Shown here one piece after another: positions 1 through 38,180 of a DNA stretch of 38,180 nucleotides. The notes under the pieces were generated by a model. The model made no database searches. It was not told the origin of the DNA and was given only the letters and a program-made list of their open reading frames with translations. The first letter of the stretch is position 1, and every line of letters starts with the position of its first letter. Source of the DNA: Psammoneis japonica (Eukaryota); assembly GCA_008632985.1 (NCBI GenBank), contig QPGO01000368.1:1-38180 (forward strand), given 5' to 3'. Position numbers and translations under genes: made by a program.

Positions 1-625
1 CCGGAAGATCCTTGCAGTTCTTCAAGTGATTAAACTTGGTTTCAATCTTTTCACGGAAGGTTTCGGTGACACGCGACTTGACGATGAGTTGTGATGAGCC
101 GATGTCATCGATTTCATGCTGATCGTAGCCTTCGTCACCTGCAGCCGCCACACGGGTCTCACATTCCTTCTCAAGGTCTTTGACAGTGAAGGCGTGAAGA
201 TGATCAAAAAGGTGCACGACCTTGCCGTCGACTTTCTTGAGATGGCAGAAAGTTTCTTGTCCGTGCGACTCGATTAAGTCCTGAATGGTCTTGACGAAGT
301 GGTCTTTGTCCAGTTCAGTGCTGGAACCGTTGGATGACTCAATCTGGCCGTTGAACTTGGATGTGGTTGCCGAAGCGAGTTGATCTCGGAGAGATCGCTC
401 GATAGAGTCGACAGCTTTCGGATGGCGACGTTGCGAGGCAAAATGGCAGGTGCGGGTGTCGGTCTGCTCGTGCTTGTTGTTCAGAGCCGAACCACCCAGA
501 TGCACTCCATGAGAGTGGTGGATACCGCCGCGAAGCGGCGTGGGGATCGTAGGAGGGTTGGTCGAGGTTTGCATCTTGGCGAAGGCCTCAGCAAACATCT
601 TGACGGCATCAGGATCCATGGACAT
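1..625 (-). CDS. Gag-like protein of Copia/CoDi retrotransposon (partial, 208 codons, open at window edge; missing from the ORF track)
   Basis: Manual translation from ATG 625: MSMDPDAVKMFAEAFAKMQ...LGGSALNNKHEQ...FASQRRHPKAVDSIERSL...KFNGQIE...ELDKDHFVKTIQDLIESHGQETFCHL...HAFTVKDLEKECETR...GYDQHEIDDIGSSQLIVKSRVTETFREKIETKFNHLKNCKDLP. No stops. The blocks GGSAL, FASQRR, FNGxxE, ELDK, YDxxE and DLPG resemble diatom Copia Gag as I recall it. Confidence 0.72.
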   Translation of the reverse strand, partial: MSMDPDAVKMFAEAFAKMQTSTNPPTIPTPLRGGIHHSHGVHLGGSALNNKHEQTDTRTCHFASQRRHPKAVDSIERSLRDQLASATTSKFNGQIESSNGSSTELDKDHFVKTIQDLIESHGQETFCHLKKVDGKVVHLFDHLHAFTVKDLEKECETRVAAAGDEGYDQHEIDDIGSSQLIVKSRVTETFREKIETKFNHLKNCKDLP

Positions 626-669
626 GGTTGTGGATGATTCGACATAGAGGATCGATTAGTGGGTGGGGA

Positions 670-721
670 TTGCGACATAGATGATCGCCGTTGGATTGCG
701 GTGTAGAAGATCGCCGTTGGA
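670..721. repeat. 2 x 26 bp tandem repeat in the retrotransposon 5' UTR
   Basis: ttgcgacatagatgatcgccgttgga / ttgcggtgtagaagatcgccgttgga, with a partial third copy near 640-654. Confidence 0.8.
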
Positions 722-790
722 CAGGATGTCGTCTGCAACGAGACGAACGAGTGGCAGCAACTCCGTTGCGAGTTGACACCGGTGCGTGGA

Positions 791-805
791 TTGGGGTCGC
801 AACCA
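791..805 (-). promoter_or_regulatory. Putative primer-binding site of the LTR element
   Basis: Minus strand TGGTTGCGACCCCAA lies 2 nt after a CA and about 170 nt upstream of the Gag ATG; its complement ends in ...GCAACCA like a tRNA 3' end. Confidence 0.45.
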
Positions 806-1349
806 CTTGGGACACAACAATGCACTGTGTAGGATGGAGAGTTCAGGACTCTCTTGAGGTTGTACAACACAACAGAGGATGATAAGAAGTAGTTTTGGGA
901 CAATAAGATACGCTAAAGATACGAATTGTGAGAAGATCTCACGAGGGATTGGAGATGACATTATGACCTAACGGTCGTGTGTGTCACTCCGATTACTATC
1001 GCTAGAAGACTCAACGGACATTTCTTCCGGAAGAAGAGATCCATGACCGGAAGCGTCATCCGTGAATCAGACTCGGTTGTTGACTCGTGACTGAGGATCG
1101 AGTCGTCGTCGCGTCGCTTGCGGATCTTTTTTCCAATCGCGCGAAAAATGCGATATGTTTAGCATATGAAAAACCTCGAAAGCGATACTTATTTTCCTAC
1201 ATTTCTTCGCGCTTTTTTGAAAGAAAATAATCACGACAAGAAAGGTCATGAGCTTCAAACATCATCACAGAAAAAAATATCAAAGATCTTTTGACCGACT
1301 GTTATGTTCTTGTTGTCAGACACAAGCATACAAGAAGCCATTTCTTGTG

Positions 1350-3107
1350 ATGGCTGACTCTACGATGCTCCTGTTAGCAGCTCTCTGCTCGATTTGCCTT
1401 GTCCATGCTTGGGGGTTTGCTGTCCCGAAATCTTTCGGAGCGGGCCCCCGTCAGCGAGTGCATTACGATGATCGAAACGCCTGGGGCTTGGCTTCCCCAA
1501 CGAAGACGTCTTCAACTCGCCGGCATGCCGAGCAAAAGGCTGCTGAGAAAAAGAAGAAGGGCCGAAAAATTCTCTTCATCACCACTGATATGATGAGATG
1601 GGATTCACTTGGCTACTATGGAGATCCTTACGCGAAGACTCCCAACATTGACAAGCTTGCTGCCGAAGGTATTCGCTACGACAATGCCCGTAATCCGAAT
1701 CCGCTGTGTATGCCCTGTCGGAACAGCATGATTACCGGACAGTACACGAGAACGCACGGAAGCTGGAACAACGGGATCCCTCTTCCTCATGATACCGAGA
1801 CCATTGCCCATGTGCTCCACGATAACGCCAAGTATCGCACGGCGATTATTGGTAAAGCACACTGGGAGCCCTTCTCAGCACCGACATCTCTAGAATCAGA
1901 ATTGGGAAACCTGAACCGCTATGGTCCGATTCGGGGGTTTGACTTTGCGAAGCTACATGCTCATGGGTCCGTTCCTTTCAACTCACACTACAGCATTTGG
2001 TTGCGTGAGAACTACCCGGAATATGTCGGTGAGTACTACCAGCTACTCAATCTAGCTGGTGATCATTCAGAAATGAATGTCAAGGGAGGGGGAGAGACAG
2101 GTGCTGTGTTCGTCAAGGACAACAAGATGCCCCGAGAAGTCTACCAAACTGACTGGACTACCGACAACACCATTCGGTACATTGACTCGTTAGATGATGA
2201 AGAAGACTGGTTTGTCTGGGCCTCTTACGGAGATCCGCATCACGCTTACGATCCACCCTCTTCTGAAGATTACATTTCCTGGAAAGATATTGAACCCTAC
2301 AAGGCTTTTGGCAAGTCAGAAGAAGAGCGGCTTGCGTGGCTCAAGGAAAAACCCTGGCACTGGGAACCTTGGTGGACTGGCGAGAAGTTTGTGTCCTTTG
2401 AAGCATGCGAGGGATTCTCCTACAGGGACAAACTCACCAGTGATCACATTCGGGAAATTCATCAAAAGATTTACACTTCAAACAAGCTCATCGACGATGG
2501 CGTTGGCAAGATTATTGACCACCTCGAGAAAAAGGGTGTCTTGGAAGATACCGACATCTTCTTTGTACCTGATCACGGCGGCATGGACGGTGCCTTTGGT
2601 TGTCTATTGATTGGTCCCAGCATGACGGATCACATTTGTAAATTGCCATTGATCTGGAAACCATCCAGCAGCACCAACACTCCTGCTTCAGTTGTGACAA
2701 AGCCAGTGAATTCGATTGACTTGGCACCCACGTGGTGCAGTATTGCGGGCATTGACGTGCCCGAGTGGATGGACGGCGAGCCGTTGCCAACTTCAGACAC
2801 GGAAGCCGAGGACCAAAACCGAGAATATTCATTTACTCAATACGAGAGTCACACACCGGATGCAAGTATTGTTATGAATAGCATGTTTGCAGACAACATC
2901 AAGTGTGTCGTGTACGAGCGTAGTAAAACCTACGACGGAACCGAAGGAGAATTGTATGATTTGAACGAGGATCCTGGCGAGTTGAAGAACCTGTGGAATG
3001 ACCCAGGTTATGCGGGAGTCAAGGCTGATATGATCGAGACGATTCGCAAGGACTTACTAGCGAGGCCCATGTTTCACAACAAGCCGATCCCTGGAGCTTT
3101 GATTTAG
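1350..3107 (+). CDS. Type I (formylglycine-dependent) sulfatase with N-terminal signal peptide and transit-like segment
   Basis: Intronless ORF with KILFITTD, the CMPCR (CxPxR) catalytic motif followed by xxxxTG, YRTAIIGKAH, PHH, DHG and ELYDLNEDPGELKNL. Likely start is MADSTMLLLAALCSICLVHA at 1350 (the ORF track starts at 1248). Confidence 0.9.
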   Translation: MADSTMLLLAALCSICLVHAWGFAVPKSFGAGPRQRVHYDDRNAWGLASPTKTSSTRRHAEQKAAEKKKKGRKILFITTDMMRWDSLGYYGDPYAKTPNIDKLAAEGIRYDNARNPNPLCMPCRNSMITGQYTRTHGSWNNGIPLPHDTETIAHVLHDNAKYRTAIIGKAHWEPFSAPTSLESELGNLNRYGPIRGFDFAKLHAHGSVPFNSHYSIWLRENYPEYVGEYYQLLNLAGDHSEMNVKGGGETGAVFVKDNKMPREVYQTDWTTDNTIRYIDSLDDEEDWFVWASYGDPHHAYDPPSSEDYISWKDIEPYKAFGKSEEERLAWLKEKPWHWEPWWTGEKFVSFEACEGFSYRDKLTSDHIREIHQKIYTSNKLIDDGVGKIIDHLEKKGVLEDTDIFFVPDHGGMDGAFGCLLIGPSMTDHICKLPLIWKPSSSTNTPASVVTKPVNSIDLAPTWCSIAGIDVPEWMDGEPLPTSDTEAEDQNREYSFTQYESHTPDASIVMNSMFADNIKCVVYERSKTYDGTEGELYDLNEDPGELKNLWNDPGYAGVKADMIETIRKDLLARPMFHNKPIPGALI

Positions 3108-5110
3108 CGCTTATGTCGTTGCAGCATTGGCAGAAACTGTCCGAAGAAACTGCAGTAGTCGAGTCTTTTAAAATTAGTTAACAGTTGTGGAGACTGGCTC
3201 TTGTAGTTTCTTACACAAAAGCAGGAATTTTAGAGGTCAAGAATCCCATCGAGTCATTTTAAAAGTGAAGTTCAATGACGTACGGTAGGAAAACGGCCCA
3301 TTCCAATGAAGATACCACCTGATCTTATCACCAAATGCTTTCCAGAAACCGTTGCTGAATGCGGATTTGAGTTGACAAATGAGCAATGTCATAAAGCAGA
3401 GTCGTTTTTTGCTTGTTGGTCATTCACTCGTAGCGTGGATGTAAGACATGCATTCACGCACCGGGCTCGTCGCTCTCCCCACTGTTTGGTCTTCAAATGA
3501 TGGCTTGAGTTGAATCATCCGGCATGAACCCTCCCCACTCGAAATTACATCAGTTCAACCTTGGAAAAGACTTGTGGCTGCATCAGGCAAGTGTGGCTGG
3601 CTCAAAGTGTTGTTGAAAAGCTGACAGGCTCATGCTGTCACCTGGGAAAATGGACCCAATGGAAAATCATCTTGAACTTGCTGGGAGGAGGGTTTGGATG
3701 TGAGCCTCACTTTCCTTGACTGTTGCCAGTCATGGAACAAGTGGGAGGCTTGATTGCCCAAACCAACTTGAAAAGCTCAGGCTTGCAATGTCACAGCTGA
3801 GCCCATGCATCCCAAGGCAGGAGCTCAGACACGCACTGCTCTCAGAGGAAGGCAAGTGGCTTCACCAAAGAAGAGCCTCTGTCTTCATTTGATGTGCTCA
3901 GCACTGCTGCCCATCAGGCATCTTGAAAGCAAATGTGCACAGTTTTGTTTGATGTGTGCATTTTGCATTCTATGACACCACACATTTGGACCTGGTCCAA
4001 CAAAAAATCAGGGGGCCCACCAGGGGAGGACGAATCTCCAATCCACACAAAAAGAGCTGGTCCAATGCAGAGCAACAACTGCAGCTAGAAACTGCTGGTG
4101 TGTGTGCTGCTGAGGGTGCATGATGCAGAGCCAGTGCCAGGCACCATCCACTTTGTGATGAACAAGGGCTGAGTGAAAACAACATGTCAGTCTCATTGCA
4201 GTGGCTTTGTCACCATTGCAGTCGACAGAGTGCTCACTTGTTCACAATGGAAATGCTCACGAAGTGTGCAGCATCAAAATGCACACAATGCAAGACATGC
4301 AATGATTTTGTGATGGTTGCAGTCAGTGGGGGGGGGGGGGGCTCAACTGCACTAAAAATGCTGAGGAGGGGTGCTGAAATGCTTGCGTGAACAAGGTTCA
4401 TTGACATCATCAGAGGTTCTACAGGCAACTCTGTGCAATGGCCAAACGATTGTCACAGGATGCTCAGGGCCTGACAGTGAATCTAAATCCATGTGTTGCA
4501 GGAGTGACCTCCACACTGAAATCTGTGAACACACATCTGCAGGGCAGTGGCTCAGCTGGAGTCTACGTCTTGCTCTCATGGTGCAAAAGCCCTTGTTTCT
4601 TTCAAACGGGCTTTCTGGTGTGCAAAAGCAAAAGGAGCTGCAGAGAATCTGATCTGGGGTTGCATCAACATGAGATGTGCTCAAGCATTTGCACACAATG
4701 GACAGGCTGATGTGCAAAAGACTTGACAGAAAAGAGGTGAGAGCCTGCATGAGGCAATTGGAAGCTCTGGAGGTTGAGATTGAAGTGGCAAATGATGAAC
4801 TCACACCACTGTGGAAAGAGACCAGTGGCACAGAGTGCAATGACTGGCATGCAGAGCAGCCCCCCAGTGCTCACATGTGATCAAATTGCAGATGGAGGGA
4901 TGCTGCTTGCAACCAGTGCATGCAGAAATGCTCGGCAATTCAGAAAATGAAAGAATTGAAGTTTTCAAGAGCCAGTCTGAAGGATCTTGTTTTGATGTCC
5001 AGGGAACTTGAGCTCAGAAAAAGAAAAAAGAAGAGCACAAAATGAAGCATGTCCAGACAGACAACCCTGTCCAAAGAGCTCATGTCAAGTGCAGCTGTGA
5101 TTGCCATGTT

Positions 5111-5592
5111 GACAATTCAAAGAACAAAGAGGCAACATTTGAAGTTCAGTTGAGCAGCTTCTTTTGCTGGGCCTTGACTGCAGCCAGAGGAAAAAGGCAA
5201 GTGACAAGGAGGTGAAAACTTTGCACTCAAAAGTGACAAACTTGCATGCAAATTGAATTTTGTGCTCTCCACTCAGCATGTGCCAAGTGTCACACCAGCA
5301 AAAGCCAGCTGCAAAGAACCTTGAGAAAGGAAGAAGCAAATGCCATGCATGGTGACAATTCAAAGAGCAAATGGCCAACATTTGAAAGTTCAGTTGAGCA
5401 GCTTCTTTTGGGCCTTGACTGCAGCCAGAGGAAAAAGGCAAGTGACAAGGAGGTGAAAACTTTGCACTCACAAGTGACAAACTTGCATGTGAAATTTAAT
5501 TTTTGTGCTCTCCACTCTGCATGTGCCAAGTGGCACACCAGCAAAAGCCAGCTGCAAAGAACCTTGAGAAAGGAAGAAGTAAATGCCATGCA
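5111..5592. repeat. Tandem duplication, ~243 bp unit x2
   Basis: gacaattcaaag...gaaaggaagaag(c/t)aaatgccatgcat starts at 5111 and again at 5354. Confidence 0.9.
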
Positions 5593-8500
5593 TTGCACAC
5601 AAAACAGGAAATTAAAAAGCCTTGGTGACAGGCTTGGTGATGCACTTGAAGACAGCATTAAAAAGGCTGTCGTGCATTCTGCAGCATTGCTGGAGAGAGC
5701 AGCCAGGTTGAGAGGTGTGTGCCCAACAGCACCAGCAGTCAAGTGCAAGCTCCTTTGGAAAAAAGTGCACAATGCTGAAGACAAGCAACATGGGAGAAAA
5801 GACAAGAAACAAGACAAGATGAAACTCAGCAAGGGAGACATCAAAGAGGGGGAGTTGCAAAGCATTTTGAAGCACTTCTTGAAAAACCCAAACCCAAAAG
5901 GTCCATGACCAAAGATTGAGTTTCTTTTGAAAAAATGAACAAAAAGAGCACAAAAGCAATGGCACTGTGACAAAAATCACTTTCCATGCTGGAGTGCCTT
6001 AAGATGGGCACCTGCAGCCTGCAAATGATCCCATCATCTGAACATTTGGTTTTTGCAGCTGTTGTTGGCCCTGGACACCCAGCAGAAAGGCACAAAAACA
6101 TGCCTTGACATGCCAGCACTCAGCTCCCACAAGATTGGCAGCACAAGCTCTCTGCTCAAACAGAGAACAGTGCTTCACATGCTCTTGTTGGTGGCTGCAT
6201 GCCAGATTTCAAAATGATGTGTCTCCAGAAAATTGCAGCCAAAATGATGCCTTGCCCAAGATTGAGGAACTCTGTCTCTTTTCAATGCCTTTTGCAGAGA
6301 CTTTCTGTCATTTTGTCATTGATGTGCCACACTCATGTCCCTGTCCAGACAACCAAACACAAAACCCACTGCGAATCTCTTCAGCACACTTCTGCAAAAG
6401 CTGTGTGAACTCTGGGCAACATCTTTGGAGCTGCAGTCACAAAGTCAAGTTGCTGCACAGAAGCTCCCCATCCAAACACCCCACATGAAGTGCATCTTCA
6501 CATGGCAGTTTCACAACTCATGGCAACATGCCACATGCCACTGTCGCACCCATTTGCAGCAGCCTCTTGTGGCTCATTCACCAACAAAGTGATGATGATG
6601 ACACACCAGTGTCTCCCAAAACACAGCTCTGGTGCCTCCTCCTCTCAGCAGCCCCAAAGCATTGAATGAGTTCCTGGACACATCAATGACATGACCAGTT
6701 TGAACCCTGGAGCCACACTGATGGAGAGTTCCTTGCAGGAGCAAGGTTGGAAGTGTGCTGAAAGACACCGCACCAATGCTGCTGGCAAAAGAACATGGTG
6801 TGACATGTTGAGCACCATCTCCCAGTGCTTTTAGCAAGTTTTCATTTTTTCTTGCAACAACAGCTGCACCAGCAGTTGTGCATGGACCAGCACATTGTTG
6901 GCTTCAAGAAAGAGGCAACACAGGCCAAGTCACTTCCAAATCTGTGCCTGTGCTTTACAATTGCTGGGTGAGCAGGCACCAGCACTCAAGCCTTTGTGGG
7001 CTCTGTGGCCTTCCAAGCTTTTTGATGTTCTGCTGTGACTTGTCATCCCATGCCACCCCTCATCATCTCAGTGCTTGCAATCATTTCACAAACTGGCAGC
7101 CAGCACTGCTCCTGCCCCTGCCAAACACCACATGTTGCTCTTGGCATGTGACCTCTCCAGATCAAAAAAACATGGTGGACACTCATGTGACCAAGCTGAC
7201 TGCAAACATCAGGGAGATGATGAGAGCAGGATCTGATGGCCAAGCAAGGAGGGAAGAAGCTCAAGATGGTGGTGGCCCTGGGAGATGCTGAGTGAGGGTC
7301 AAAACTTGTTCCTGAAGGAGAAAGACAGAGGCAGCTCTGTCAAAGCCAAGGAGACAGATGAAGCAGCATGAGCCAAGCTGTTCCAGGACTTCATCCACAG
7401 GGAGGGTTGTCAGCCCCATTCAGCACACAACCTGGGCACAACTCTTCCTTTTCTTTTCTGCTTGCTTTTGCCATTTCTGCTCTGCCTTTGGCTTTTTTCC
7501 AACTCACACCAGCAAACAACTCTTCAGGAGATGTTTGAGAAGGAGGAGCATCTTTGCACCATGAAGGCATGGGATGGAGGAGCTGTTGCCAGATGAGACA
7601 TGCCACCCAGCCTCATGAGCAGGCATGGAAAGTTGGCCTGGGGGAGCTCCTGGACAATCCAGTGTGCCCAACCAAGGAGACCAAAAGGACTGCCTTATGC
7701 AGCAGGCAGGTTGGCGGCACATGGATGACAGGTGGGGAACACTCCTTTGCACAAAGCACACCTTCAAAAAATCCTTTTGTTTGGCCCAAAAGCAGCCCTG
7801 GGTGCCCAAGCAGACCAGCGTCAGGCAGGTCTGCTGCTGCAGCACCTGCCACAAAGAACAGCAGGAAGCACTCACTTTTCAGCAGCCCAGCAATGTGTTG
7901 TTGTTTGAGTGCTTGGCAACTTTAGAAAGGAAGGACAAAGTTTGGCACAGCTGATTGGAGCAGGTGTGGCATTGGCCAAAGAGAACAGTGAGCACACCAC
8001 AAAAAAAAGAGCACCAAAAGTGGCAAAACCAACTTTTTTCAGGGACAGGGAGGGAATGCACACACAGCCCACAGTTTGGAGTCACTTCACAAAGCTGCAC
8101 ACAGGATCCACATTGTGATGTTTTGTCCTCAAGGGATGGTGAAACCTTCTGTTGGGGTTGAGATGCCATGTCATCAGCCAGCTTCTGGGGTGCTGCTTCA
8201 CTCATTTTGTGCTTTGCCAGTGGCCATGTCAGCCACCAGCTGCTGCTTTGTTTGCTGTGGTGCCACATTGGCAGCAGCCAGCCAGCAGCTGCTTTGTTTT
8301 GTGCAACTGGTGGGAACAGAGAGTGTCACACCAGGCTGGGAAATGAGCACTTTGTGCAATGCTTGGGGCTGATTAAGAAGGTGTACACAACTTGCCACCT
8401 TGACAAGAAAAGAAATGACTCCATGATCTGGAAAGTGCTTTCTTGACACAAACTGCTCATTGCCAATGCAAGGGCTGTGGTCGTGGCAGCCACAATGACA

Positions 8501-9108
8501 AGGCAGGCATCTCACCACACTGTGACACTTTTTTCTTCAGGAAGAACTCTGCCAGTGCCAAGCAACTCAGTTGCTCCACAAAGCAACCTGGAGCTCTTGT
8601 GTGGCTTCATCCCTGTCACAAGCCAGACACTTTTCTGCAGATCACCTCAGCACAGAAAAAACTCATGGACAGTCTGCCAGACATTTGTTGATGCCAACCG
8701 TGTGATTCTTTGCCGCTTGAGAGACACGTGGGGTGATGGAATGCAGCATCACTGACACTTTGTCATGCTTGGTCTTCAGTGTTTTGAGAGGGAGATGTGC
8801 TGGTTGCACTGCTGCTGTGAGTTTGTCAGTTTTGATGATGTTGTTTGTGTGCTGAGAGTCAAGGGAAGGTGAGCAGCTGGGAAAGCTTTCCACTTCAATT
8901 GGTTTGTTTAATTGAGATTTCTTTTTCTTTTTGCTTGGAGCAACAAGCCATGCTTTGGCAAGGTCAGCTTCAGCCCATTGTTCACCACTTGGGTGATGCA
9001 TGCAAAAATGTCAGGTGCAATGGATCTCTTAAGATGTCAATGTTTTTTGGCAGCAATGTTGTCACAGTCATCAATTTTTAGAGTGTGTCAGTTGAGAAAG
9101 ACCTGAGT

Positions 9109-9624
9109 GCAAGCAGATGATGAGGGCATCAGGGCAAGCCATCAAAATGAGACATGCAGTTTTCATGGGAGCATTGCAAAAGAAGCTTGCTCTTGGCAAG
9201 AGAACAAGATTCATTTTACAAGGACTTCTGAAGTTTGTGAGTCCACAGACAACATCAAGCCAGCAGAAGTGTCAGAAGAGGACATCAAAGACAGAAGCTT
9301 GTGCACTTCTAAAGGCACAAAGGAGAAAAGAAAACTCGACAAAAGAAGTTGAATGCAGGAGCTCATTGCTGTCAGTGGATGAAGCCAGCACAAGCAGCAG
9401 ATGAGGAGCAGGGTGCCAGGGCAGGCCATCAAATGTGAGATGCAGTCTCCAAGGGGCCATTGCAAAAGAAACAGTTTTGCAAGCCAACAAGATGCACTTC
9501 TTTACAATGACATCTGAGGTTTGTGAGTCAACAGACAACATCAAGCCAGCAAAAGTGTCAGAAGAGGAGGTCAAAGACAGAAGCTTTGGCACTTCTAAAG
9601 GCACCAAAGAAGAGAAGAAAACTC
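9109..9624. repeat. Tandem duplication, ~286 bp unit x2
   Basis: ttgtgagtc(c/a)acagacaacatcaagccagca...acttctaaaggcac at 9235 and 9521. Confidence 0.85.
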
Positions 9625-9935
9625 CCAAAAATGATTTCAGTGGAGGACTCATCATCACCAGATGAAGCCGGGCACACTTGCTTCTTGCCTTTTGCACAAA
9701 CAAAGAAGCTTCAGGTCATGACCAGCTCCTCCCATTTCCACATGAAGTCTTTGGCAATTTGCTCTGCAAAGGGTGGTCAACTTTGGGGGCTGCTTGGCAA
9801 CTTCGGGAGGGGCTTGAGCCACTTGTTGGCTCCAAAGCCAACTCACAGCTCCACATCCCCAAGACAGCACTGCTGCATTTTTGCATGGAATCTGCTCAGG
9901 GCAGAGGAAGAAAAAGATGGAAATCAGAGGGGCTG

Positions 9936-10710
9936 GTCATAAAAGCTGCAGGGTGCAGAAAGCTGTGGGGTGCAGGCTTCATAAAGAAAGCTGCACACAG
10001 AAGCTTTGGGGCATGGGAGCAAAGCTGCAGGGTGCAGCTTTCACAAAGAATGCCGTGGAGTGCAAAAAGCTGCACATCACAGGTTTGGCTCAAAAGCTGC
10101 AGGTTTTGCACAAAAGACATGGGGTGCTGCAAGCTGTGGGTCACAGGTCTTGCACATGCACAAAAGCTGTGGGGCACACAAAGTTGCAAGGCACAGGTTT
10201 TGCTCACAAGCTGGGTGCAGCATGCACAAAGCTGTGTTGCGCAGGTTTTGCACAAAGCTGCAGGGTGCAGAAAGCTGTGGTGTGCAGGTTTCACAAAGAA
10301 AGCAGCGGGGTGTGCAAAGCTGCCAGGTGCAGGTTTTGCACAAAAGCTGCAGGATGCAGAAAGCTGTGGTGTGCAAGTTTCATAAAGAAAGCTGCAGGGG
10401 GTGTGCAAAGCTGCAGGGCACCAGTTTTGCACAAAAGCTGCAGGAAAGTTACACGGTGCAGGTTGCAGGTTTTGCTCAAAAGATGCAGGGCACACAAAGC
10501 TGTGGGGTGCAGGTTTTGCACAAAAGCTGCAGGGTGCACAAAGCTGCAGGTTTTGCACAAAAGCTGCACAGTGCAAACAGCCATGGGGTGCGGGCTTTGC
10601 ACAAAAGCTGAAGGGTGCAGCACAAAGCTGCCAGGTGCAGGTTTTGCTCACAACCTGCAGGGTGTGCAAAGCTGTGGGGATTAGGTTTTGCACAAAAGCT
10701 GCAGGGCACT
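9936..10710. repeat. Degenerate minisatellite built from aaagc-NN-NN-ggg-NN-NN-g(g)ttt units (NN = TG or CA)
   Basis: Many variants of aaaagctgcagggtgcagaaagctgtggggtgcaggttttgcac. Confidence 0.9.
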
Positions 10711-10896
10711 GCTGCAATTGAAGAAGCTCCAAGGTGGCAATTCTTTGCTCTGGTCTTTGCCCTTGCAGGTCTAAATGTTGTGCAGGAAGCTTTGCTGTGC
10801 ACATCTTGGAGATTTGAAAGCTTGCAAGCTGCCAGTCTTCCGCATGTTGTTTTCACACATCTTCCAGCATGCCCAGTGGCACAGTTTCAAGAGAAG

Positions 10897-11466
10897 TGTC
10901 AGATGCCACACCCAGATTGCTTGCACTCCAGCTGTCATTTGTTGACAGGACATTGTTGTCAAAAGATCACATGAGAAGAGCAGGACACACAACTCCAACG
11001 GTCAAGCAGAGGTGTCAACAGAACAGCTTCAGACCTCTGTCAGATGCCACACCGAGATGGCTTGCACTCTGGCCATCATTTGTTGACAGGGCACTTTTGT
11101 CAAAAGATCACATGAGAAGAGCAGGACACACCACAACTCCAACTGTTAAGTGGAGGTGTTGACAAAACAGCTCAAGACCTCTGTCAGATGCCACACCCAG
11201 ACTGCTCTTGCACTTCAGCCATCATTTGTTGACAGGACATTCTTGTCTAAAAATCACATGAGAAGAGCATGACACACAACTCCAACTGTCAAGTGGAGGC
11301 ATTGACAGAACAGCTTCAGACCTCTGTCAGATGCCACACCCAGACTGCTTGCACTCCAGCCATCATTTGTTGACAGGACATTCTTGTCAAAAGATCACAT
11401 GAGAAGAGCAGGACACACAACTCCAACTGTCAAGTGGAGGCATTGACAGAACAGCTTCACACCTCT
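10897..11466. repeat. Tandem repeat, ~142 bp unit x4
   Basis: tgtcagatgccacac... starts at 10897, 11038, 11182 and 11325. Confidence 0.92.
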
Positions 11467-13517
11467 CAAATGCTGTGCCCCAGCAGCTTGGATTGTTTGC
11501 TTGCCATTGCTTGTTGACAGCATGTTGTTGGAAGTGTGCCTGGGAAGAGTGTGGGGTGCATGTCCAAGAAGTTCCAGGTGGAGGTTTCAAGGGGAGGGCC
11601 CTTGAGGCAGCAAAGGAGGGTCTGAATTTTGACTGCAGGTTTTGAAAGTTGCAGATTTTGGAATCATGATGTTGTGAGCAGCTTGAGACTTTGACCACTG
11701 CAGCTTTCAGATGGTGGAGCAACCTGGCCAGGTGACTTGACAAATTGTGGTTTGCCACAGGAACAAGGGCACTCAGCAACTGTGCTGTTTGACAACAGGT
11801 GATTTGTCTCAAGCAAGGCAGCCAGGCAAGCCTGAGTCACTGCTGTTTTTTTCTCTTCTTGCCATCTCTTGATTTGTGTCGCCACAACCCTTCTCAAAGT
11901 TGTCTTGATGATTGACAAAAACCAGCTCCTTGAGCACGACAAATGCAGCAACATCAAAAAACTTGTTTGGCAATGCCAGATGGTGTGAGAGACATCTGCA
12001 GCAGCTGCACATCCTCTCTCAGCTGCTCTCAACTTTGTTGCAGTCCGAGAATGTTCAGGTGGCATTGACAAGGAGACAACAAAAAAGGCTCTCCAGCACA
12101 CCCACCTCAGAAGCCCCAACTGTCAACTCCAGCTGCTCCCAGGGAAAAGACTCTCATTGGCTCAAATCAAGATTTTGTTTGAACAGGTTTGTGTCTGCGA
12201 GTGATGAGGCATTTTGGCCTGCTGACTTTGGAGAACAGCTGGAACAAAAGTGGACATGCGTGCACAGAAAACAAAGGAAGAGTTGAAGGAGGCCAATCAG
12301 GAGGGGCTCATTCTGGAGGCCAATTGCAGCAATGGGGGTGGCAATCAAGCAAAAAAGAAGGAATCAGAGGGTTGGAACACAAGAAAGGACCAGACAGGGC
12401 AAAAATTGGGAAAACGGATTTCAGGAGCAGAGATTGAGCAAGGACACTGACAAGTTCAATGAAGTTTGGTCAAAGGAGCCCTGGGTGCACATGGACAAGA
12501 CAGAAGAGTCCCAAGAAAATGATGGCAAACAGTTGCAAGCAGGCAACAATGTCAAGGATGACATGATCAAAAACCATGGATTTGTGGCTCCCGGAGACAC
12601 AACAACAAGCAGCCATTTAAATTGACATTTGGCGACAATTTGCAAAAATGAAAATGCAAAATCAACAGCAGACTGGGTGGATTGAAAAGGAAATGAAAAA
12701 ACTGTGGATGTGTTGGAGGGCACATAAAAAATGCAACTCAGCACCAGAAACATTCATGCAGCGGAACCTGCACATTTTCATCGAAATGCCCGAATTGTCA
12801 GCGGGGCACCCAAATTGTCAAAACAAAGAATGCCAGTGTGGCTCCCCCATTGAATGCAATGGAACCCCAAATGCAATGAACCCAAGATCTGCGCACAAAT
12901 TGAAAGATGAACCAACATTGATCAAGGCAATTGCCCCCTTTCGGGCAAATTGTTTCTCCCTCTGATGTCTTTTGTGCGGCCAGCCAGCGCTCCTGCGGCC
13001 AAACTCAAAGCTGGGCGTTGCATGCACTGCTCCAAGAAGCAGATCTGTTTTGGGTTACAAAGCCAGGCAAGTCAAACTCCAGCTTGTTCTCTCCTCCTTT
13101 GTGTGTGCTTCTTGTTCGTTTTTCAAAAGTGGCGAGTGTGTGCTCCTCATGTCTCTGCTTTTCCTCCCCAGCTGATCATTTTTTCAGAAGTTTTCAAATT
13201 TTTGACCCAAACAAGGGAGTTAGTTGGTGGCTCTTGTCAATCAGAACTCCAAAGTCCTTCTGCAAATCCCAAAGAGTTGTCTTGTCTCCTGGAGCTGTGG
13301 AGCGCATCTCACCCTGATCGTGTTGGTGGTGGTTTGTCTCGGAAGTGGAGCGGCCCACTTGGACAGCGAGAGACAGCCGTCCCATTCACCGCCCCGCCCC
13401 CACTCCCGGCTTGGGAGGTCCCCCGGCCCGAGCCCCGCGAGACGCGAGAGCGAGGAGGAGAGTCCTGTCTTCTGCCTGCCTGGAGGGAGCAGGAGTCTGC
13501 AAGCAAACGACAGCACC

Positions 13518-29759: not shown

Positions 29760-31470
29760 CATTGACAGTTGCTTTTGTCTTGTTTTGCACCCTCAATCAT
29801 GCACTGTGTGTGACACAGCCCTTTTTTCCGTTGAGATGATGGATGCGGTGATTTTGGGCTTTTTGCGCACTCGCTCGCTTTCAAACCAGCGCAAACAACT
29901 CACTCAACACCCTTGTTTCTACGCCTGACAAGGACAATCACATGATGCAAGCCCAGATTGTTGATGAATTGTCAAAATTAAAAGTCATTGTCTGATGATT
30001 GCAACCTTCAGTTGTGAATGCCTTGCACAGTCATTTGCAGCACCAGAGGAGCCTGGCAGCTCTCTTCTTGGAGCCCTCTCTTGTGCTTCTGAAGTGACCA
30101 AGGAACTCACTTGATGCCAATGGCATGCCCTTCATTTTCCTGCCATTGAACTTCCAACTTCTTCCTGAGACAAAGTCCCTTTCTTGTTGTCACTCCAGAC
30201 AGAACCACACAAACCCAGCTGTCTGTGTGGTCAAAGTTGTTGTTGGACAACAACCAGGCTCTCAATTTTGCACCCCCTGGAGCTTGTGCACAGTTGCTGC
30301 GTTGTTGCACAAAACTGGGAACTGGGTCAATTGCTTCCTCTGACTGATTCTTGGTTTTTTTTGTGAATGAAACCCATCACAGGGACAGGAAAGTTGACAA
30401 CACAGCATGTCTCTCTCCTTGGGGCCACACAAGAAAACAGCTCTCATCCTCCTGCCTTTTCCTCATGCCTCAAGACAATCGACTCAACTTGCAAAACACA
30501 GGCTGACCTCACCCAATGACCATCAATCTTCATCAACTCCAAATCATCCAAAGAAACACATTCCTTCAGCTCAACTCCCTGAAAAAAGCCAGCAGTGCCA
30601 CTGGCCTCCTTTTTCTCCACATGTTCTCATCGAGGTTCATTGTCACAGGGCGGCCATGCAAAGCTTCAGAAGTGAGCCCACATGCCTTGATTCATTTCCG
30701 GCTCATTTGACGTGAGCATCTGGACAAACTGCAAACAAAATGTCCTTGGACAGTTCATCTTGAAAATCCACATGCTTGCATGACCTGGTGTTCCATTTTT
30801 TCCACTTGAGGTTCTTGCTTGCTCAGAGGACAATGGCGTGGGTTGGAGGTGACTGTGCAAGAGATTTTGAGCATGTTCCCTCTAGCACCTTCTTGAAAAT
30901 GCCGTTGTTGACTGCATTCCTGTCAAGACCAGTGGCAACAGCGCAGGTTGCATTGCTTGGGATGTCACTTTCCATGAGGAAAAGATTGCTGGCAGATCAA
31001 GGTTTTCAACTTTCAGATGTTTCCACAAAAGTCAGTCAGTGCAAAAATGATGAAAATCCAGAGGAGAATGGCTGGCGCCTGTCAGGACTCATCTGATCAC
31101 AATGAACAATGAAAACACCACCAAATCATGTCTTCAGCTTTGTCAGTTCATCAAGAGTTGGGCAACAAAGCACAAAGAAGAGATGACAAAAGTGCAAGAC
31201 AGAGCGTGTTGCTGATGGTGCATTGTGCAACATTGTGCACTCTCCACCTGCTGCACCCAACCATTGTGGGTCACTGTCAAGTTGATTGGAGAGGTGTGTG
31301 ATGAAGATGACACTGATGAAACATTTCATGAAACTTGCGCAGATGTCGAGAAGCCATGATTTGCTGGTGGCTGGCGAGTGTCTCCAAATGAAACAAAAGA
31401 GCACCGCGGACATCCTTCTCATTGCTTGACATTTTGACAATTGCAATGTCATTGTGTTGTTTGAAGCATC
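29760..31470 (-). mobile_element. Decayed Helitron-like element with PIF1 helicase remnants (30107-30990)
   Basis: Frameshifted minus-strand fragments in the correct order: DIPSNATCAVATGLDRNAVNNGIF, LLKLC/HGRPV...EASGT, QFPVLCNNAATVHKLQG (motif V) and WVCVVLSGVTTRKGLCLRKKL (motif VI, YVxLSRV). The block is TpA-depleted. Confidence 0.8.
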
Positions 31471-31681
31471 TGATGTTTCATCTTAAATGTTTGTAAATAA
31501 AGACAACGAGACACAGCCGTTCAGCGAAGCGTCCAATCTGGACTTCAGATTGTGACCCGCAAAAAGAAATGACCGACGAACCATGCAGGATCATCGCATC
31601 GATCGACGTACTGACCGTGCGTCTTTCCGTCATCATTATTCTGTCTGTCCGTGCCCTGTGTGTTATTTGCCTCCGACATTT

Positions 31682-33549: not shown

Positions 33550-34779
33550 TTAGTTCGAATTCAATATACGACGCGACTGGAGTCGCCGTTGATATAATTT
33601 AACATACGCCACCCGCAGCAACACGATTATCTGTTCATATGTGAGGAAAGTGAAGGCTGCCGTCAAGACTGTTTGAAGCAGTTTTGCTTCCAATCCTCGA
33701 AATAAACCAGCAACACCCCCTTGTTTGAAGAGTTTGCGAAAACAATCCCATGTACCATTGTAAACCATGAGAGTTCTATCTTTGGATTCTGCGTCCTGCT
33801 CTTTATGCTTTTGCTGTATTCTCAGCAGGACTTGAGCAAGCTGTAGTGGATAAGTCGCAACCGTGGCTGCAGCCTTTGCAGTGGCTCCCAGAAGGAATGC
33901 TTCGACAGGAGTGAGCCCCAACACTGTTGCTTGCTGATTTTGTCTCGGTGTTATGCGTCCCTGAAGGCTTCGAGAGATACGGTTGGCTTTCAATTGCTCG
34001 TAAAGAAAAAATTGAATTACAGGATTGGACACGAGCAAGAGGGAGGCCCATGTTCCATTCCACAAGCGAGATTTTCCTTCAACTCTTAGAATGGAATGTA
34101 CTTCTTGAAACAAGGAAGGTGTCTTGGACTCGCCTTGAACAAAACGTAAGTTCGCCACCCACAACGGATTGGTAATTAGAACATTGGCAATACCGGCTAG
34201 ACAGGAAGCGAACAACGACCTCGAGAGTGACGGGGTTTTCTTGCCTATCGAACTGGCGACGGGGAAGAGGTATCGCTTTGCCACAGCGTGCGCGTAAAAG
34301 AAAACGAAGTTGGATGCTGCCATGGTAGTAATTACAGGTGACACCCCTCTGTACAGTTCACCTTGATTTTTTAATCCAACAAGACAAGATATCAACTCAC
34401 TCCTGTTTGCTGCCGCGGACCTGTCTTCAATTGACTGCGAATGCGACGACATGGACCACGAAGCCTCGTCTTCATCGGCGGCCTCGCTTCGTTTGCGATC
34501 TTTCTGTTCCGCAAATTGAACCCAAGAATCGTCTTTTTGCTGAACACAATCCAATTTATTGTTAGATTCGTCATCACTTGATGATTCGATGTCGTCTGAA
34601 TGCTTCTCTGGTTGTTGTGCTGCTGCCGCCGACTGCATTTCGATTCGCGCCCGTTCCAACGGGAAGAACAATAACAGCGCCAAGGCCGATCCCAAGGAGC
34701 CTCCAACTGCATGAAAAATGGGTGGAAGGGCTACAGGCGCATCGCTGGGGGTTGCATATGATGCGGTTCTTGCCGCCAT
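33550..34779 (-). CDS. Mitochondrial carrier family protein, peroxisomal PMP34/SLC25A17-like
   Basis: Three carrier repeats (FPLERAR, NPLWVAN, YPLQLAQ) plus SNFVFFY, LLLVSNPVIQF and KLLQTVLTAAFTFLTYE typical of PMP34. True start is most likely MAART at 34779, not 35472. Confidence 0.88.
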   Translation of the reverse strand: MAARTASYATPSDAPVALPPIFHAVGGSLGSALALLLFFPLERARIEMQSAAAAQQPEKHSDDIESSSDDESNNKLDCVQQKDDSWVQFAEQKDRKRSEAADEDEASWSMSSHSQSIEDRSAAANRSELISCLVGLKNQGELYRGVSPVITTMAASNFVFFYAHAVAKRYLFPVASSIGKKTPSLSRSLFASCLAGIANVLITNPLWVANLRFVQGESKTPSLFQEVHSILRVEGKSRLWNGTWASLLLVSNPVIQFFLYEQLKANRISRSLQGRITPRQNQQATVLGLTPVEAFLLGATAKAAATVATYPLQLAQVLLRIQQKHKEQDAESKDRTLMVYNGTWDCFRKLFKQGGVAGLFRGLEAKLLQTVLTAAFTFLTYEQIIVLLRVAYVKLYQRRLQSRRILNSN

Positions 34780-34920
34780 GGCGTCCGATGTTACTTCTAC
34801 AAGCACATGTAACCTTACAGTAAAAGAGAAATGAGCAGTTCGGAATTTGCGGCGAGCGCGCGCTTCATGCGAAAAGCTCGGGCGCCGCGGGGGGGGGGCG
34901 GCCGCCCGTCCGTCCCGAAA

Positions 34921-36290
34921 CCAAGCATTTTGATTTCCAGGAGGAACACAACGCTCAAGTCTCGTTCCGACATCAGCGCTGATGGTTGGTGAGCTGTTTG
35001 GGACATGCCAAGTGCAAGCCACTTTCCAACTTTGCAGGCAGAGAGTAGTTTGAAGTTGTTGCCCCACAACCACAACCTTCGTTGGCAGCTCTGGGTTTGT
35101 GCAACATTGCTTTTCACACCAGCAGGATTCATCACTGCCTCCAGCAATGATTTGGTTGCACCGTTGCCGACATGGCATGAGGGAGCTGTCTGCATGAGCT
35201 TCTTTGCTTGTCACATGAACTTTCCTGCAGCATGCAAACAAGAAAAAATTCAGTGTTTGGAGAGATGTGGCACCCCACCTTTGCTGTGATCCCACTGTTG
35301 CTGAGAGCAGATTCATCATTTTGTGCATTGAACAGGTGGAGGGCAGTGTCTGTCCTTTTCTCAAGACTGCTGGCATGCATGTGAAGCAGCAACACAAGTT
35401 GTGGGCTTGGCAAGAAAGCCCCTCATGATGAGAGCTCACTTTTTCCAATCCTGTCAAACTGGAAAAGAGCAAAAGACGGTCAATGTCAACAAAGACTTTG
35501 GGTTGGTCAATTTGGCACTGGATTGCTCAGATCAGGCTTGCCAGAATGCCACCTTTTGCTGCATTTCTTCTGTGGTGTGATCCTTCATCTTCTTTGTTGT
35601 TCTTGCCACACGTCTCTTGCAGACCATGCACTTTTTGCAACAAGCCCTCCCTTTGTCTCGATCCATGCCCAAAAGTTCACGCAACAGACCATCCGTCTTT
35701 TGTGCAAGGACATTCAAGGCTGCTTGGTGCATTTGCAACTTCTGTCAACAGCTGGACTCAGCCCACACAAGCCCTGCATGTGTGGAGACCCTCGCCATGC
35801 ATGCCCTGAGGGATGCCACTGATTGAATGAGATGTGCCGGCTCCACTCAAGGCAGCAGCCTCACAAGCAATGGCACCCAAACAAGAGCTTTCCATCAAGT
35901 TTTCCTGCACTCTTCCAATCCATCATGGAGTGAGCTTTCTGATCAAGGCATTGGTTGAGTGGCTCTCCCCATGGCATGGATGGGTGCTTGGCATTGCATT
36001 CCATGCAAAAGGCAGCCAAAGTCGCCGACTTCTCATGAACAGACTTTGCTTCTTCACTGTTTGCACACTTCCACAGTGCTCAGCAACACAAGCAATCTCC
36101 AATGCAAAGTGATGGGGTAACTTCACCTCCTCTTCTGCATCCACAACAGATGGATCCTCCTTTCCAAATTGGCGTGCTTCAAGGACTCGCTTTGCATCAT
36201 TTGCGCGGATGCCACCAAGTGTCAAGACAGACTGAGTGGCTGCAGACACTGTGGTTGATTGGGTTTGGGCGTCCATGCTGACAGTTGATG
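34921..36290. other. Third TpA-depleted decayed block (element of unknown type)
   Basis: Manual tally of 2 TA versus about 21 CG in 1370 bp; no recognisable intact gene. Confidence 0.75.
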
Positions 36291-36377: not shown

Positions 36378-38180
36378 CTAGGACGATCTTGTGATGACAC
36401 TGTTGAATGCGGCTTGGCTGAGGGTGACTCTTCCAGTAGATTGCTGTCGTTTTTTGCCCCGTTTCTGCTTCTCCAAGAGCTTCTTCTTTCTCGTCACGTC
36501 ACCTCCACCTACGGATTTAGAGCCACCGGTAATCAAAACGTTTTTGCGATAAGCTTGAATACGAGCACTTGCAATAATTCGCCCCCCATTTTCCGCAGCC
36601 TGAATCACAGTTACGAACTGCTGGCGCGGCAACGTTTCTCTGAGTTTTCACAGACAACTCTTCCTTCTGTCTGTGCAACGCTGACATGACAAACAAACGA
36701 AAGAGGCTCTACGATTTCTCCGTTCAACATGATATCAACCTTGGACAAATTTGCTTCTTGCAGCGGTGGGTCAGCCTCCCACGTATCAAGACTTCCGTAG
36801 CCTGCTGTGACATTCTTCAGATCGTTATCAAAATTCGTGACCACTTCACCCCAAGGCATGATTGCTTGGAAACCCACGTATCCTCGTCCATGGGGTGACT
36901 TGACAGGTCCGCCCTCGTTTACGTTTCACTAGGCTCCATTATATTGCCGNGCATGCTCCATGGGGGCGACGATCCGCACATGCACCACAGGTTCTTGGAC
37001 TGTAAATCTAGTCCCTGGTTTGGGCCAATCCGTTAGGTTTTCTACAACGTATGTGTAAGGTTCTGTTATTCTGTTGTTCTTGCTGGGGAAACATTNTTGA
37101 TGGTATATGGAACTTTCGGAGGGGTTACAACTGCATCGAGATTGAATTCATCAAGAAGTCGTTGACGGAATACTTCTACATGCAATAAGCCTTGAAACCC
37201 GACTCGTAGACCAGGCCGAGAAAGGGTCCGCCGCTGTTCCATCGTGATTTCCGGTGGATGACGTCTTGGAGACTTCCAAACCTGTATCATTCAACGCCAG
37301 CTTATCAACCGCGTGGGCAAGCTCTTCAAAGCCATCAGCTTCGGTTGGATGAACCGATGCGTACAAACTGATACCTGTGCCTTTCTTGTAGTTTCATTGT
37401 CGATAAGTAGATGTGAAGGTAAGGCAATTCCCACATGCTGTCGTCGTGTCAAGATGGTACCCGGCATAGCTTGTCTTGGGTCTCGCAGTCCAAAGCGAAC
37501 GTAACCCATTGGCCTCGACTCAGCTTTTTCGTTCGGAAGTTACTTTGGCAGCAGTATCCCGACTTCCTGCACAGAAAAAATGACCGGGTACTGTCTCCAT
37601 CAGTTCCATCTTGATTGTTACAAATTGCAATTTTGTCCCCCTCCTCCATGGGACCCTGAGAGGATTTNGCACGACACACTCCACACCACGTAGCGGGTCA
37701 AAATAGGAGTCTACAACTTGCGCTACAAGCTGGTCGTCATTCTCAAGCGATAACGCCGTCGGTGAAGGTACGTTTCGACAAACAGCATCCAATACCTTGG
37801 CTATCCCTATAACGGTTCCGAGCACTTGTCCACAAGATATCATCAGGTCATCCCAAGACAACCACTCAGACACTGTCAAGGCAACCATGAATGGGCCGAG
37901 CAAGATTCAAATCTACTTTTGTCAACGCCACCAATAGTTTGAGCTGCGCCTGACGTTGTTCGAGCTGACGTTTCTGAATGGCCATTACCTTTTCGTGAAC
38001 ATTCCATGTTGAGCTTGAATACCCTGAGTGGCATCCAGGAGCAAAATTGCACCCTGAACGAATGAAAGTGACCGCGAGACTTCGGTTCCGAAATCGCTGT
38101 GGCCTGGGGTGTCCCACCATGTTGAGCAACAACACACCAGAGGGCCCACAGCAGAAGGGTGCTTGTAAAGCATGGTGGCA
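36378..38180 (-). CDS. GUF1: Translation factor GUF1/LepA (EF-4), 5' end beyond window; many apparent frameshifts
   Basis: Fragments [62 protein letters not shown] and [20 protein letters not shown] occur in LepA order. N bases nearby suggest poor sequence quality. Confidence 0.85.

Follow-up and report, generated by a model that had tools for sequence, protein, structure and literature searches.

Introduction

So far a single report, a 2026 preprint on the chlorarachniophyte Bigelowiella natans (10.64898/2026.01.13.699255), describes hypermutation of foreign DNA that is restricted to TpA dinucleotides. In mutation-accumulation lines of this organism, the mutation rate of two integrated viral regions exceeds that of the remaining genome ~1000-fold, and of the 231 mutations in these regions 230 are changes from A to G or from T to C, every one of them at TpA. 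Coding sequences that are low in TpA show an excess of reverse transcriptase and DDE domains, and the proposed agent, chosen by homology, is an ADAT2-like adenine deaminase (10.64898/2026.01.13.699255). Here we analyze a 38,180-nucleotide stretch of DNA from Psammoneis japonica (contig QPGO01000368.1 of assembly GCA_008632985.1, positions 1 to 38,180 of the forward strand; hereafter the window), in which positions 1-1092 are best explained, on the minus strand, as the 5' end of one insertion comprising a candidate long terminal repeat (LTR), a leader and the first 208 codons of Gag. We consider it probable that this is the 5' end of a Ty1/Copia LTR retrotransposon bearing the footprint of an A:T>G:C process confined to TpA, and we would class it as a further instance, in a Copia family of a diatom-like genome, of this very recently described kind of targeted hypermutation.

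The locus resembles the B. natans regions in that A:T>G:C changes at TpA give CpA or TpG, the depletion of TpA is coupled to a rise in CpA plus TpG, and the process is confined to foreign or mobile DNA adjoining normal genes (10.64898/2026.01.13.699255). It differs in its host, which is diatom-like and from another supergroup, and in its target, which is a multi-copy Copia-type element whose edited form has been amplified. The rate was measured in real time in B. natans, whereas here it is read from sequence only; in addition, the saturated blocks of the window described below have also been erased of CpG, on which the preprint is silent (10.64898/2026.01.13.699255).

[quoted passage not shown] Fungal RIP is ruled out by this depletion, rather than enrichment, of TpA and by the open frames. 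Vertebrate APOBEC editing also leaves a deamination-type footprint, biased by strand and context, in LTR elements, and sublethally edited copies can persist; in contrast to the changes seen here, which are at A:T pairs in TpA, it acts on cytosine in other contexts (PMC4866542). The CpG decay of methylated transposable elements has its counterpart in CpG>TpG/CpA changes among copies of the element (5 of 76 sites) and in blocks of the window that are nearly free of CpG, and CpG methylation of a diatom Copia element has been mentioned (PMC2806351). As the cause of the TpA loss, however, CpG decay was rejected: in 1-625 the observed/expected ratio is 1.07 for CG and 0.17 for TpA, and CpG is depleted in the blocks only. 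Lastly, the element is like the diatom Ty1/Copia (CoDi) elements in that the Gag of its relatives is followed by protease, integrase and an RVT_2 reverse transcriptase, and in its diatom-like host (PMC2806351). The likeness to the described CoDi groups is one of description and not of sequence (PMC2806351). The Gag domain of the window has no Pfam model. Full-text literature searches returned no report of TpA-only hypermutation in a diatom or other stramenopile, although such searches cannot prove that none exists.

TA depletion at the start of the window

By exact count, positions 1-625 hold 6 TA (observed/expected 0.17) and 45 CG (1.07), together with 37 CA and 58 TG; the ratio for AA is 1.06. 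A preliminary description of this DNA had given the same 6 TA and 45 CG, an uninterrupted frame of 208 codons with one Tyr, 15 His and four Cys, and a difference between two 26-nucleotide repeats in the leader. All of these counts proved exact, every peptide that had been quoted is present, and the repeats, which are 85% identical, do read ACA in one copy and GTG in the other. The long open reading frames (ORFs) elsewhere in the window (n = 11) have TA ratios of 0.36-0.73 and contain 0.6-4.7% Tyr.

The depletion is not a simple consequence of the protein that is encoded. When the Gag protein was kept fixed and synonymous codons were redrawn from the usage of the host ORFs, 21.1 +/- 3.6 TA were expected against the 6 observed, a ratio of 0.28, while the same resampling applied to the 11 host ORFs gave ratios of 0.65-1.13. 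The resampling model overpredicts TA in most host ORFs (observed/expected <=0.75 in 8 of 11), so its nominal p of 0.0002 is too strong and the ratio was used instead; with the Gag expectation scaled to 15.8, the Poisson P is 0.005. Since the depletion persists with the protein fixed, TA must also be absent from synonymous sites and codon junctions, and not merely through the lack of Tyr.

In bins of 100 nucleotides, the true TA-poor zone extends over 1-830 and contains 10 TA, or 12.0/kb against 37.1/kb in the ordinary parts of the window (Poisson P = 1.3e-5). The other pyrimidine-purine (Y-R) dinucleotides of this zone stand somewhat above those of the ordinary parts, with CG at 74.7/kb against 56.5/kb and CA+TG at 159.0/kb against 141.4/kb, and the Y-R total is 245.8/kb against 235.0/kb. 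Past the end of the repeat the TA count per bin is uneven (6 in 1101-1200, 2 in 1201-1300 and 4 in 1301-1400). We take the depletion of TA to be genuine, on solid statistical grounds, and its reading as TA>CA/TG to be correct.

Histidine and cysteine at conserved tyrosine positions

A phmmer search of 1.84 billion representative proteins with the Gag ORF gave 200 relatives at E<=1e-3, 94 of them at E<=1e-10, the best at 2.7e-36 and 40% identity. A query-anchored alignment of 150 listed relatives, of the 200, defined the family columns. Tyr is the commonest family residue (47-79%) at eight query positions (39, 42, 52, 60, 127, 128, 167 and 170), at which the query has, in this order, H, H, H, C, C, H, Y and H, that is, His or Cys at seven of the eight. 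Among 81 homologues that cover at least six of these positions, the number of His or Cys is 0 in 45, 1 in 30, 2 in 5 and 4 in one, and none comes near seven of eight; the four of the last homologue (P0080) were rejected as an artefact of alignment register. Where the consensus is >=50%, the query departs from the family at 5 of 6 Tyr positions and at 19 of 72 non-Tyr positions (Fisher p = 0.0095). At the Tyr positions, the two homologues whose Tyr content is equally low have Phe or Trp, not His or Cys. The closest relative (P0151, 50% identical) has Tyr at 39, 42, 52, 60 and 127, which is five of the six positions that it covers, and Cys at 128; it was the one protein returned by a search for near homologues, and a search for longer ones returned none.

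The preliminary description had proposed that the His and Cys of this Gag were once Tyr, and had suggested the comparison with relatives as a test. The relatives do have Tyr where it was predicted, and for the seven of eight family Tyr positions the proposal stands; it does not extend to the His and Cys at large, since only 7 of the 19 trace to Tyr. At positions 36, 121, 142, 144 and 200, His is itself the commonest family residue (30% at 142 and 54-90% at the others), and the rest lie at variable positions. Loss of TA is also legible in a codon other than Tyr: codon 177 encodes Ser (TCA) where the family has Leu (67%), which fits TTA>TCA.

Outside the tyrosines the protein is ordinary for its family. 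The query agrees with the family at 0.74 of the non-Tyr consensus positions, which equals the mean of 43 homologues (range 0.55-0.90), and the Gag therefore does not look generally decayed. Two further members of the same family (P0095 and P0141) contain 1.2% and 0% Tyr and 9.4% and 11.4% His plus Cys, with His or Cys at family Tyr positions and Cys or His at family Arg positions; judged from these protein sequences, this hints that the process replacing Tyr by His and Cys may not be confined to one copy or one genome.

An alternative is a branch of Gag proteins that came to use His and Cys by chance or lineage drift, with the low TA following from amino-acid content and codon usage. His68 and His61 are common to the query and P0151, and 22 of 111 homologues have His at position 39. 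We nevertheless regard this explanation as very improbable: P0151 retains Tyr at the five positions given above, the depletion of TA remains with the protein sequence fixed, 0 of 81 homologues approach seven of eight, and codon 52, which is split between His and Cys among the copies described next, needs a TA intermediate.

Differences among copies in the same sample

For comparison with other copies we used the contigs of one public run, probably of the source sample, in which 270 contigs matched 1-1300 at >=80% likeness; two further runs gave no matching contigs, and no RNA data set was listed as containing the stretch. Only differences at 5% of depth or more are counted; rare variants are lost in contigs, and the summed contig depth is not a copy number. 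This depth is 760-12944 over 1-1100 (4139-12944 in the bins of 837-1100) and 55.9 from 1101 on. Loose contig ends start at 1092, and a contig of depth 55.9 covers 1096-1300 with 0 differences. The depth step, the loose ends and the exact match of this contig to a single-copy flank together indicate that 1-1092 is multi-copy and that the outer end of the element lies at ~1092.

The spectrum of the differences is narrow. Thirty of the 31 copy-to-copy differences are transitions, and 30 lie inside Y-R dinucleotides (TA, CG, CA or TG), for which ~47% would be expected (p = 2.5e-9). Transitions occur in other copies at 8 of 23 TA sites and at 5 of 76 CG sites (p = 0.0016), and 10 of the 31 differences are transitions at these eight TA sites of the window, four of them TA>CA and six TA>TG on the plus strand. 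At two such sites (403/404 and 969/970) both CA and TG are found, in different contigs. At three sites CA in the window is TA elsewhere: 643, in 4 contigs, 736, in all of the counted depth, and 813. A further four sites are TG here and CA elsewhere (95/96, 319/320, 471/472 and 767/768), which implies a TA or CG ancestor that was resolved in two ways; for the three within the ORF, a TA ancestor is consistent with the family residue. At sites for which the family gives no information, we infer the direction of change. The C>T and G>A differences fall in CpG (5 sites), belong to a TG/CA double change as its second half (4) or are CA->TA (3). As a control, two metagenome loci from other samples that are 99.3% identical over 2273 nt (L001 and L002, described below) differ at 15 places, 6 of which are in Y-R context.

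The B. natans-type pattern, A>G or T>C on TpA, is thus found here, with a minority of differences at CpG (5 sites). A>G in an ApA context accounts for 1 of the 31 differences. RNA hyperediting by ADAR enzymes yields A>G with a loose 5' preference for U or A over C and G, so that ApA is hit as well. The strict restriction to TpA, seen both in the differences and in the AA ratio of 1.06, argues against a loose preference of this type, the numbers being small.

Individual codons record the same events (Table 1). At codon 52, a single contig, which makes up the whole counted depth there (714.2 of 714.2), combines 471 T>C with 472 G>A, and only TAC yields both states by single transitions while matching the family. 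Codon 61 is a CpG>CpA change private to the window copy or to its minority lineage. At the junction of codons 102 and 103 (319/320), the window has C and A, other copies have T and G, and Thr predominates in the family at 103 (judged by eye from alignments A1 and A2). At six of the seven Tyr-derived codons, in contrast to codon 52, no alternative letter reaches 5% of the multi-copy depth; the absence of a listed alternative does not prove that the copies are identical, though every bin has depth. The Tyr-derived changes therefore appear to be common to the subfamily and older than its amplification.

The directional TA>CA/TG process that the preliminary description had read from the composition of this one copy agrees well with these data, in which copies differ almost only by transitions within TA, CG, CA and TG, and its contention that TA loss is faster per site than CpG decay, and not a by-product of it, is borne out by the 8 of 23 TA against 5 of 76 CG sites. 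Its picture of an intact CpG is right for the composition of 1-625; it needs amending for His61, where CAT in the window is CGT (Arg) in most of the counted depth and CpG is consequently not wholly intact. We depart from it on timing. The element had been taken to be caught in the middle of the process, whereas the apparent uniformity of six of the seven Tyr-derived codons would place these changes before the amplification of the subfamily. It had also been called young on account of its open ORF, but TAA and TAG cannot arise from a process that erases TA, and little can therefore be read about age from an open frame.

Structure of the element

The identity of the ORF was worked out through its relatives. 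Pfam applied to the Gag ORF gave RH1 alone, at E = 0.1 and under its cut-off, and applied to 18 long homologues it gave a single zf-CCHC match and no other. This CCHC knuckle (P0036, residues 364-381) and others recognized by eye in long relatives lie beyond residue ~340, and the window holds 208. In one relative (P0030) this Gag is followed by a D-T-G-A protease region that aligns with the Pol of a metagenome locus, L001 (E = 9e-19). That locus was one of two, L001 and L002, returned by a search for related loci with the 8-sequence alignment A2. It carries a homologous Gag (36% identity, E = 1e-30) beside a Copia-type Pol, the polyprotein having gag_pre-integrs, an SH3_retrovirus domain and RVT_2 in Copia order, with the Gag ~800 nt downstream. 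Because these relatives join this Gag to Copia-type Pol or protease, the window ORF is assigned to the same type, as the preliminary description had proposed. The comparison supports reading it as probably the N-terminal part of a Ty1/Copia-type Gag whose own Pol would lie outside the window. When the Gag ORF and the L001 Pol and Gag were compared with the window by tblastn, no second copy was found within it.

Two features of L001 may be recorded here. Over 1-7779 it consists of a Pol end, ~800 nt of TA-richer DNA and then Gag, which suggests two tandem elements or an assembly collapsed at the LTR, and the last ~60 residues of its open Gag frame look unrelated to Gag.

Upstream of Gag on the minus strand lie the leader, a candidate primer-binding site and a candidate 5' LTR (Table 1). 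ARAGORN found no tRNA in the window to match the candidate primer-binding site. The second LTR is outside the window, and one multi-copy terminal segment ends at ~1092. The candidate LTR (831-1092) has an ordinary TA density of 45.8/kb, and other copies have CA or TG at seven of its TA sites.

Table 1. Coordinates of the element, of selected codons and of the blocks in the window (strand "." denotes no strand).
Feature	Position	Strand	Remarks
TA-poor, CG-normal zone	1..830	.	spans Gag and leader; from dinucleotide density
Gag ORF, first 208 codons	2..625	-	ATG at 623-625; open, continues past the window start
Codon 177	95..97	-	TCA (Ser) here, TTG (Leu) in other unitig; a TTA ancestor fits both
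Codon 61	443..445	-	CAT (His) in this copy, CGT (Arg) for 781.6 of the 843.2 depth counted; family R43/K34
Codon 52	470..472	-	CAC (His) here, TGC (Cys) in other unitig; family Tyr in 95/121
Leader	626..805	-	26-nt tandem repeat 667-692 and 693-718, partial third copy 630-660
Candidate primer-binding site	805-788	-	TGG start at 805; read from sequence only
Candidate 5' LTR	806..1092	-	outer end ~1092 from depth; inner end estimated from depth step at ~793-836
TA/CG-poor block 1	3545..13000	.	from dinucleotide density; edge sharp within ~100 nt at 3545
TA/CG-poor blocks 2 and 3	~30000-31500, ~35000-36000	.	from dinucleotide density

The TA density of the candidate LTR bears on the stage at which the element was edited. 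In an explanation that differs from the one we favour in stage only, editing would be tied to retrotransposition: an adenine deaminase that prefers TpA would act, in the manner of APOBEC3, on single-stranded minus-strand complementary DNA (cDNA) or on sense and antisense RNA, and sublethally edited copies would re-insert. In human immunodeficiency virus (HIV), the LTR is the least edited part of the retroviral cDNA, and the candidate LTR here keeps a normal density of TA. Most Tyr-derived codons appear common to a multi-copy subfamily, as they would if edited genomes were re-inserted. The Gag coding strand also has an excess of CA over the codon resampling (58 against 49.5 +/- 4.0) and none of TG (37 against 37.8), which is the polarity expected of adenine deamination on the minus strand, and the former Tyr codons, with 5 His and 2 Cys, lean the same way. 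Against this, both polarities occur among the copies (TA>CA 4 and TA>TG 6 on the plus strand), the asymmetry is not significant, the Pfam search of 44 frames in the TA/CG-free blocks gave no retroelement domains, and in B. natans it is single-copy integrated DNA that mutates in real time (10.64898/2026.01.13.699255). We therefore hold editing during the retrotransposition cycle to be possible but doubtful.

TA- and CG-free blocks and host context

Elsewhere the window contains three blocks in which both TA and CG are scarce (Table 1). They hold 3.4 TA, 6.2 CG, 118.2 CA and 104.1 TG per kb, against 37.1 TA, 56.5 CG and 141.4 CA+TG in ordinary parts; TA and CG are at ~10% of normal, CA+TG is up by the same amount (222.3/kb), and the Y-R total is 232.0 against 235.0/kb. 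An unchanged Y-R total is what transitions alone, inside Y-R steps, would give, and the blocks look like the saturated end state of TA loss together with CG loss. They give way abruptly to the normal genes beside them. None of the 44 block frames of >=100 aa had a Pfam match at E<=0.001, two at ~0.009 being well under their gathering scores, and a comparison of the three blocks found no similarity to one another. These comparisons give no support to the idea that they are old copies of this or another element.

The blocks also bear on selection as an alternative to biased mutation. Selection might act on an active element against UpA in its RNA, or against TpA in its DNA, for instance in the face of a UpA-cutting RNase or a TA-directed defence, and favour TA-poor variants, replacements of Tyr among them. 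We consider this unlikely. The protein looks constrained, its agreement of 0.74 matching the homologue mean, it is the TA-poor version that occurs in many copies, and the L001 Pol is TA-poor with an intact frame, all in keeping with selection; but conserved Tyr is replaced by His and Cys only, though Phe is the usual family alternative, near-identical copies differ in the same TA and CG contexts with the non-coding leader and the LTR included, and blocks without recognisable genes show the same conversion at saturation. Selection could act on top of a biased supply of mutations.

Several further observations concern the blocks themselves. The 42 TA that survive in them are not random in context: TTAA stands at 0.56 and CTAA/TTAG at 0.30 of normal density, and ATAT and ATAC/GTAT at 0, in small numbers. 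Block DNA without TAA or TAG has many overlapping frames of 100-318 codons on both strands (4355-12962). In the 608-codon mitochondrial carrier ORF (33550-35376), Mito_carr covers residues 489-587 only; the N-terminal part extends into block 3 and is probably a false extension. Block 1 contains tandem repeats at 5105-5593 (~243 nt x2, 93%), 9112-9652 (~284 nt x2, 80%), 9938-10709 (a diverged array of ~90-140 nt) and 10897-11466 (~142 nt x4, 88-92%), as well as a run of ~15 G at 4327-4342. At its right edge (12750-13500), CG is back from ~12750 and TA is rare until ~13500. This might be taken for a second zone of low TA with CG restored, but 13301-13500 is simply G+C-rich and promoter-like, and we do not count it as support. 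Single N letters stand at 36950, 37096 and 37668.

The genes of the host are long and intron-free and encode a sulfatase, an mTERF protein, an EF-hand phosphatase, a DnaJ protein, an aminotransferase and a mitochondrial carrier. Among named sequences, those nearest to the phosphatase come from Seminavis, Amphora, Epithemia and a metagenome-assembled genome of the Bacillariaceae, the best match overall being 53% identical. By these gene sequences, the host genome looks intron-poor and diatom-like. The aminotransferase matched only protein clusters of bacterial type and did not help to place the host.

Mechanism

Taken together, a TpA-directed A:T>G:C process is the most likely mechanism, and we think it a good deal better than an even proposition. 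Such a process would change TpA to CpA or TpG and leave CpG largely alone. In coding DNA it would turn TAY (Tyr) into CAY (His) or TGY (Cys) and TTA (Leu) into TCA (Ser) or TTG (Leu), and reading frames would stay open because TA>CA/TG cannot make TAA or TAG stops. It would have struck the lineage before the present subfamily amplified, since most of the His and Cys codons appear common to the copies, and it was then presumably a Gag stripped of Tyr that spread. It would also still be acting on individual copies, given that some changes are private and that the same ancestral TA has been resolved differently between copies. The likeliest chemistry is enzymatic deamination of adenine after T, which may take place on either DNA strand and on chromosomal or reverse-transcribed DNA, and which was put forward for the identical signature in B. 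natans (10.64898/2026.01.13.699255). A separate and slower loss of CpG to TpG or CpA, probably through deamination of methylated cytosine, would take foreign DNA on to the TA- and CG-free state of the blocks. The data themselves show the composition, the replacement of Tyr by His and Cys, the many copies and the spectrum of differences between them, whereas an enzyme, its stage of action and a role in defence are what we infer.

The same outcome would result if thymine and not adenine were the base attacked, the T of TpA being modified (5-hydroxymethyluracil or J-type oxidation) or mis-repaired to give T>C. TpA is self-complementary, so this gives the same product as deamination of adenine, and sequence does not reveal which base was changed, A to G or, on the opposite strand, T to C. 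In dinoflagellate DNA, hydroxylation of thymine does prefer TpA. The sole experimental report, on the other hand, favours an ADAT2-like adenine deaminase, by homology only (10.64898/2026.01.13.699255), and we regard attack on thymine as improbable.

Several points weigh against a TpA-confined process acting on this element. The copy-to-copy data come from the contigs of one run alone, in which rare variants are dropped, and the direction of change rests on a protein family of 40-50% identity rather than on a nucleotide consensus of the element's own family. The related and apparently intact locus L001 has 6-15 TA per 500 nt in its Pol, in an open frame of 1678 codons; low TA is accordingly not diagnostic by itself in this family, and only the loss of Tyr and the copy spectrum are. 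The candidate LTR of the same insertion, at an ordinary 45.8 TA/kb, is not explained by a uniform process on an integrated copy. Finally, the B. natans precedent is a preprint on an organism of a different supergroup, and it makes no mention of CpG (10.64898/2026.01.13.699255).

Significance

Loss of tyrosines might be expected to inactivate Gag, as the preliminary description had supposed. The comparison with the family does not support this and appears to lean the other way, the rest of the protein agreeing with the family at the homologue mean and the Tyr-stripped version being the one in many copies.

More broadly, and tentatively, diatoms might, like B. natans, run an adenine-editing defence directed at TpA in mobile and foreign DNA, which with CpG decay would finally leave insertions poor in stops and free of TA and CG, an "inverse RIP". 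The Copia family would then be engaged in an arms race, amplifying with seven of eight conserved Tyr lost, and the depletion of targets may protect it; the contrast of a TA-normal LTR with a TA-poor interior would in that case reflect editing of single-stranded cDNA while it is being reverse-transcribed. This wider picture seems to us doubtful at present.

If the TpA-directed process is real, it would be old, or convergent, across eukaryotic supergroups, and its many-copy target would allow rates, polarity and stage to be read from pairs of LTRs. It would also explain the puzzling blocks of 1-10 kb that are free of TA and CG, in which, for want of TAA and TAG stops, long false ORFs arise on both strands and may mislead gene prediction. 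The genome would then possess a defence that damages proteins by removing Tyr and the codons TTA, ATA, GTA and CTA while leaving the reading frames open.

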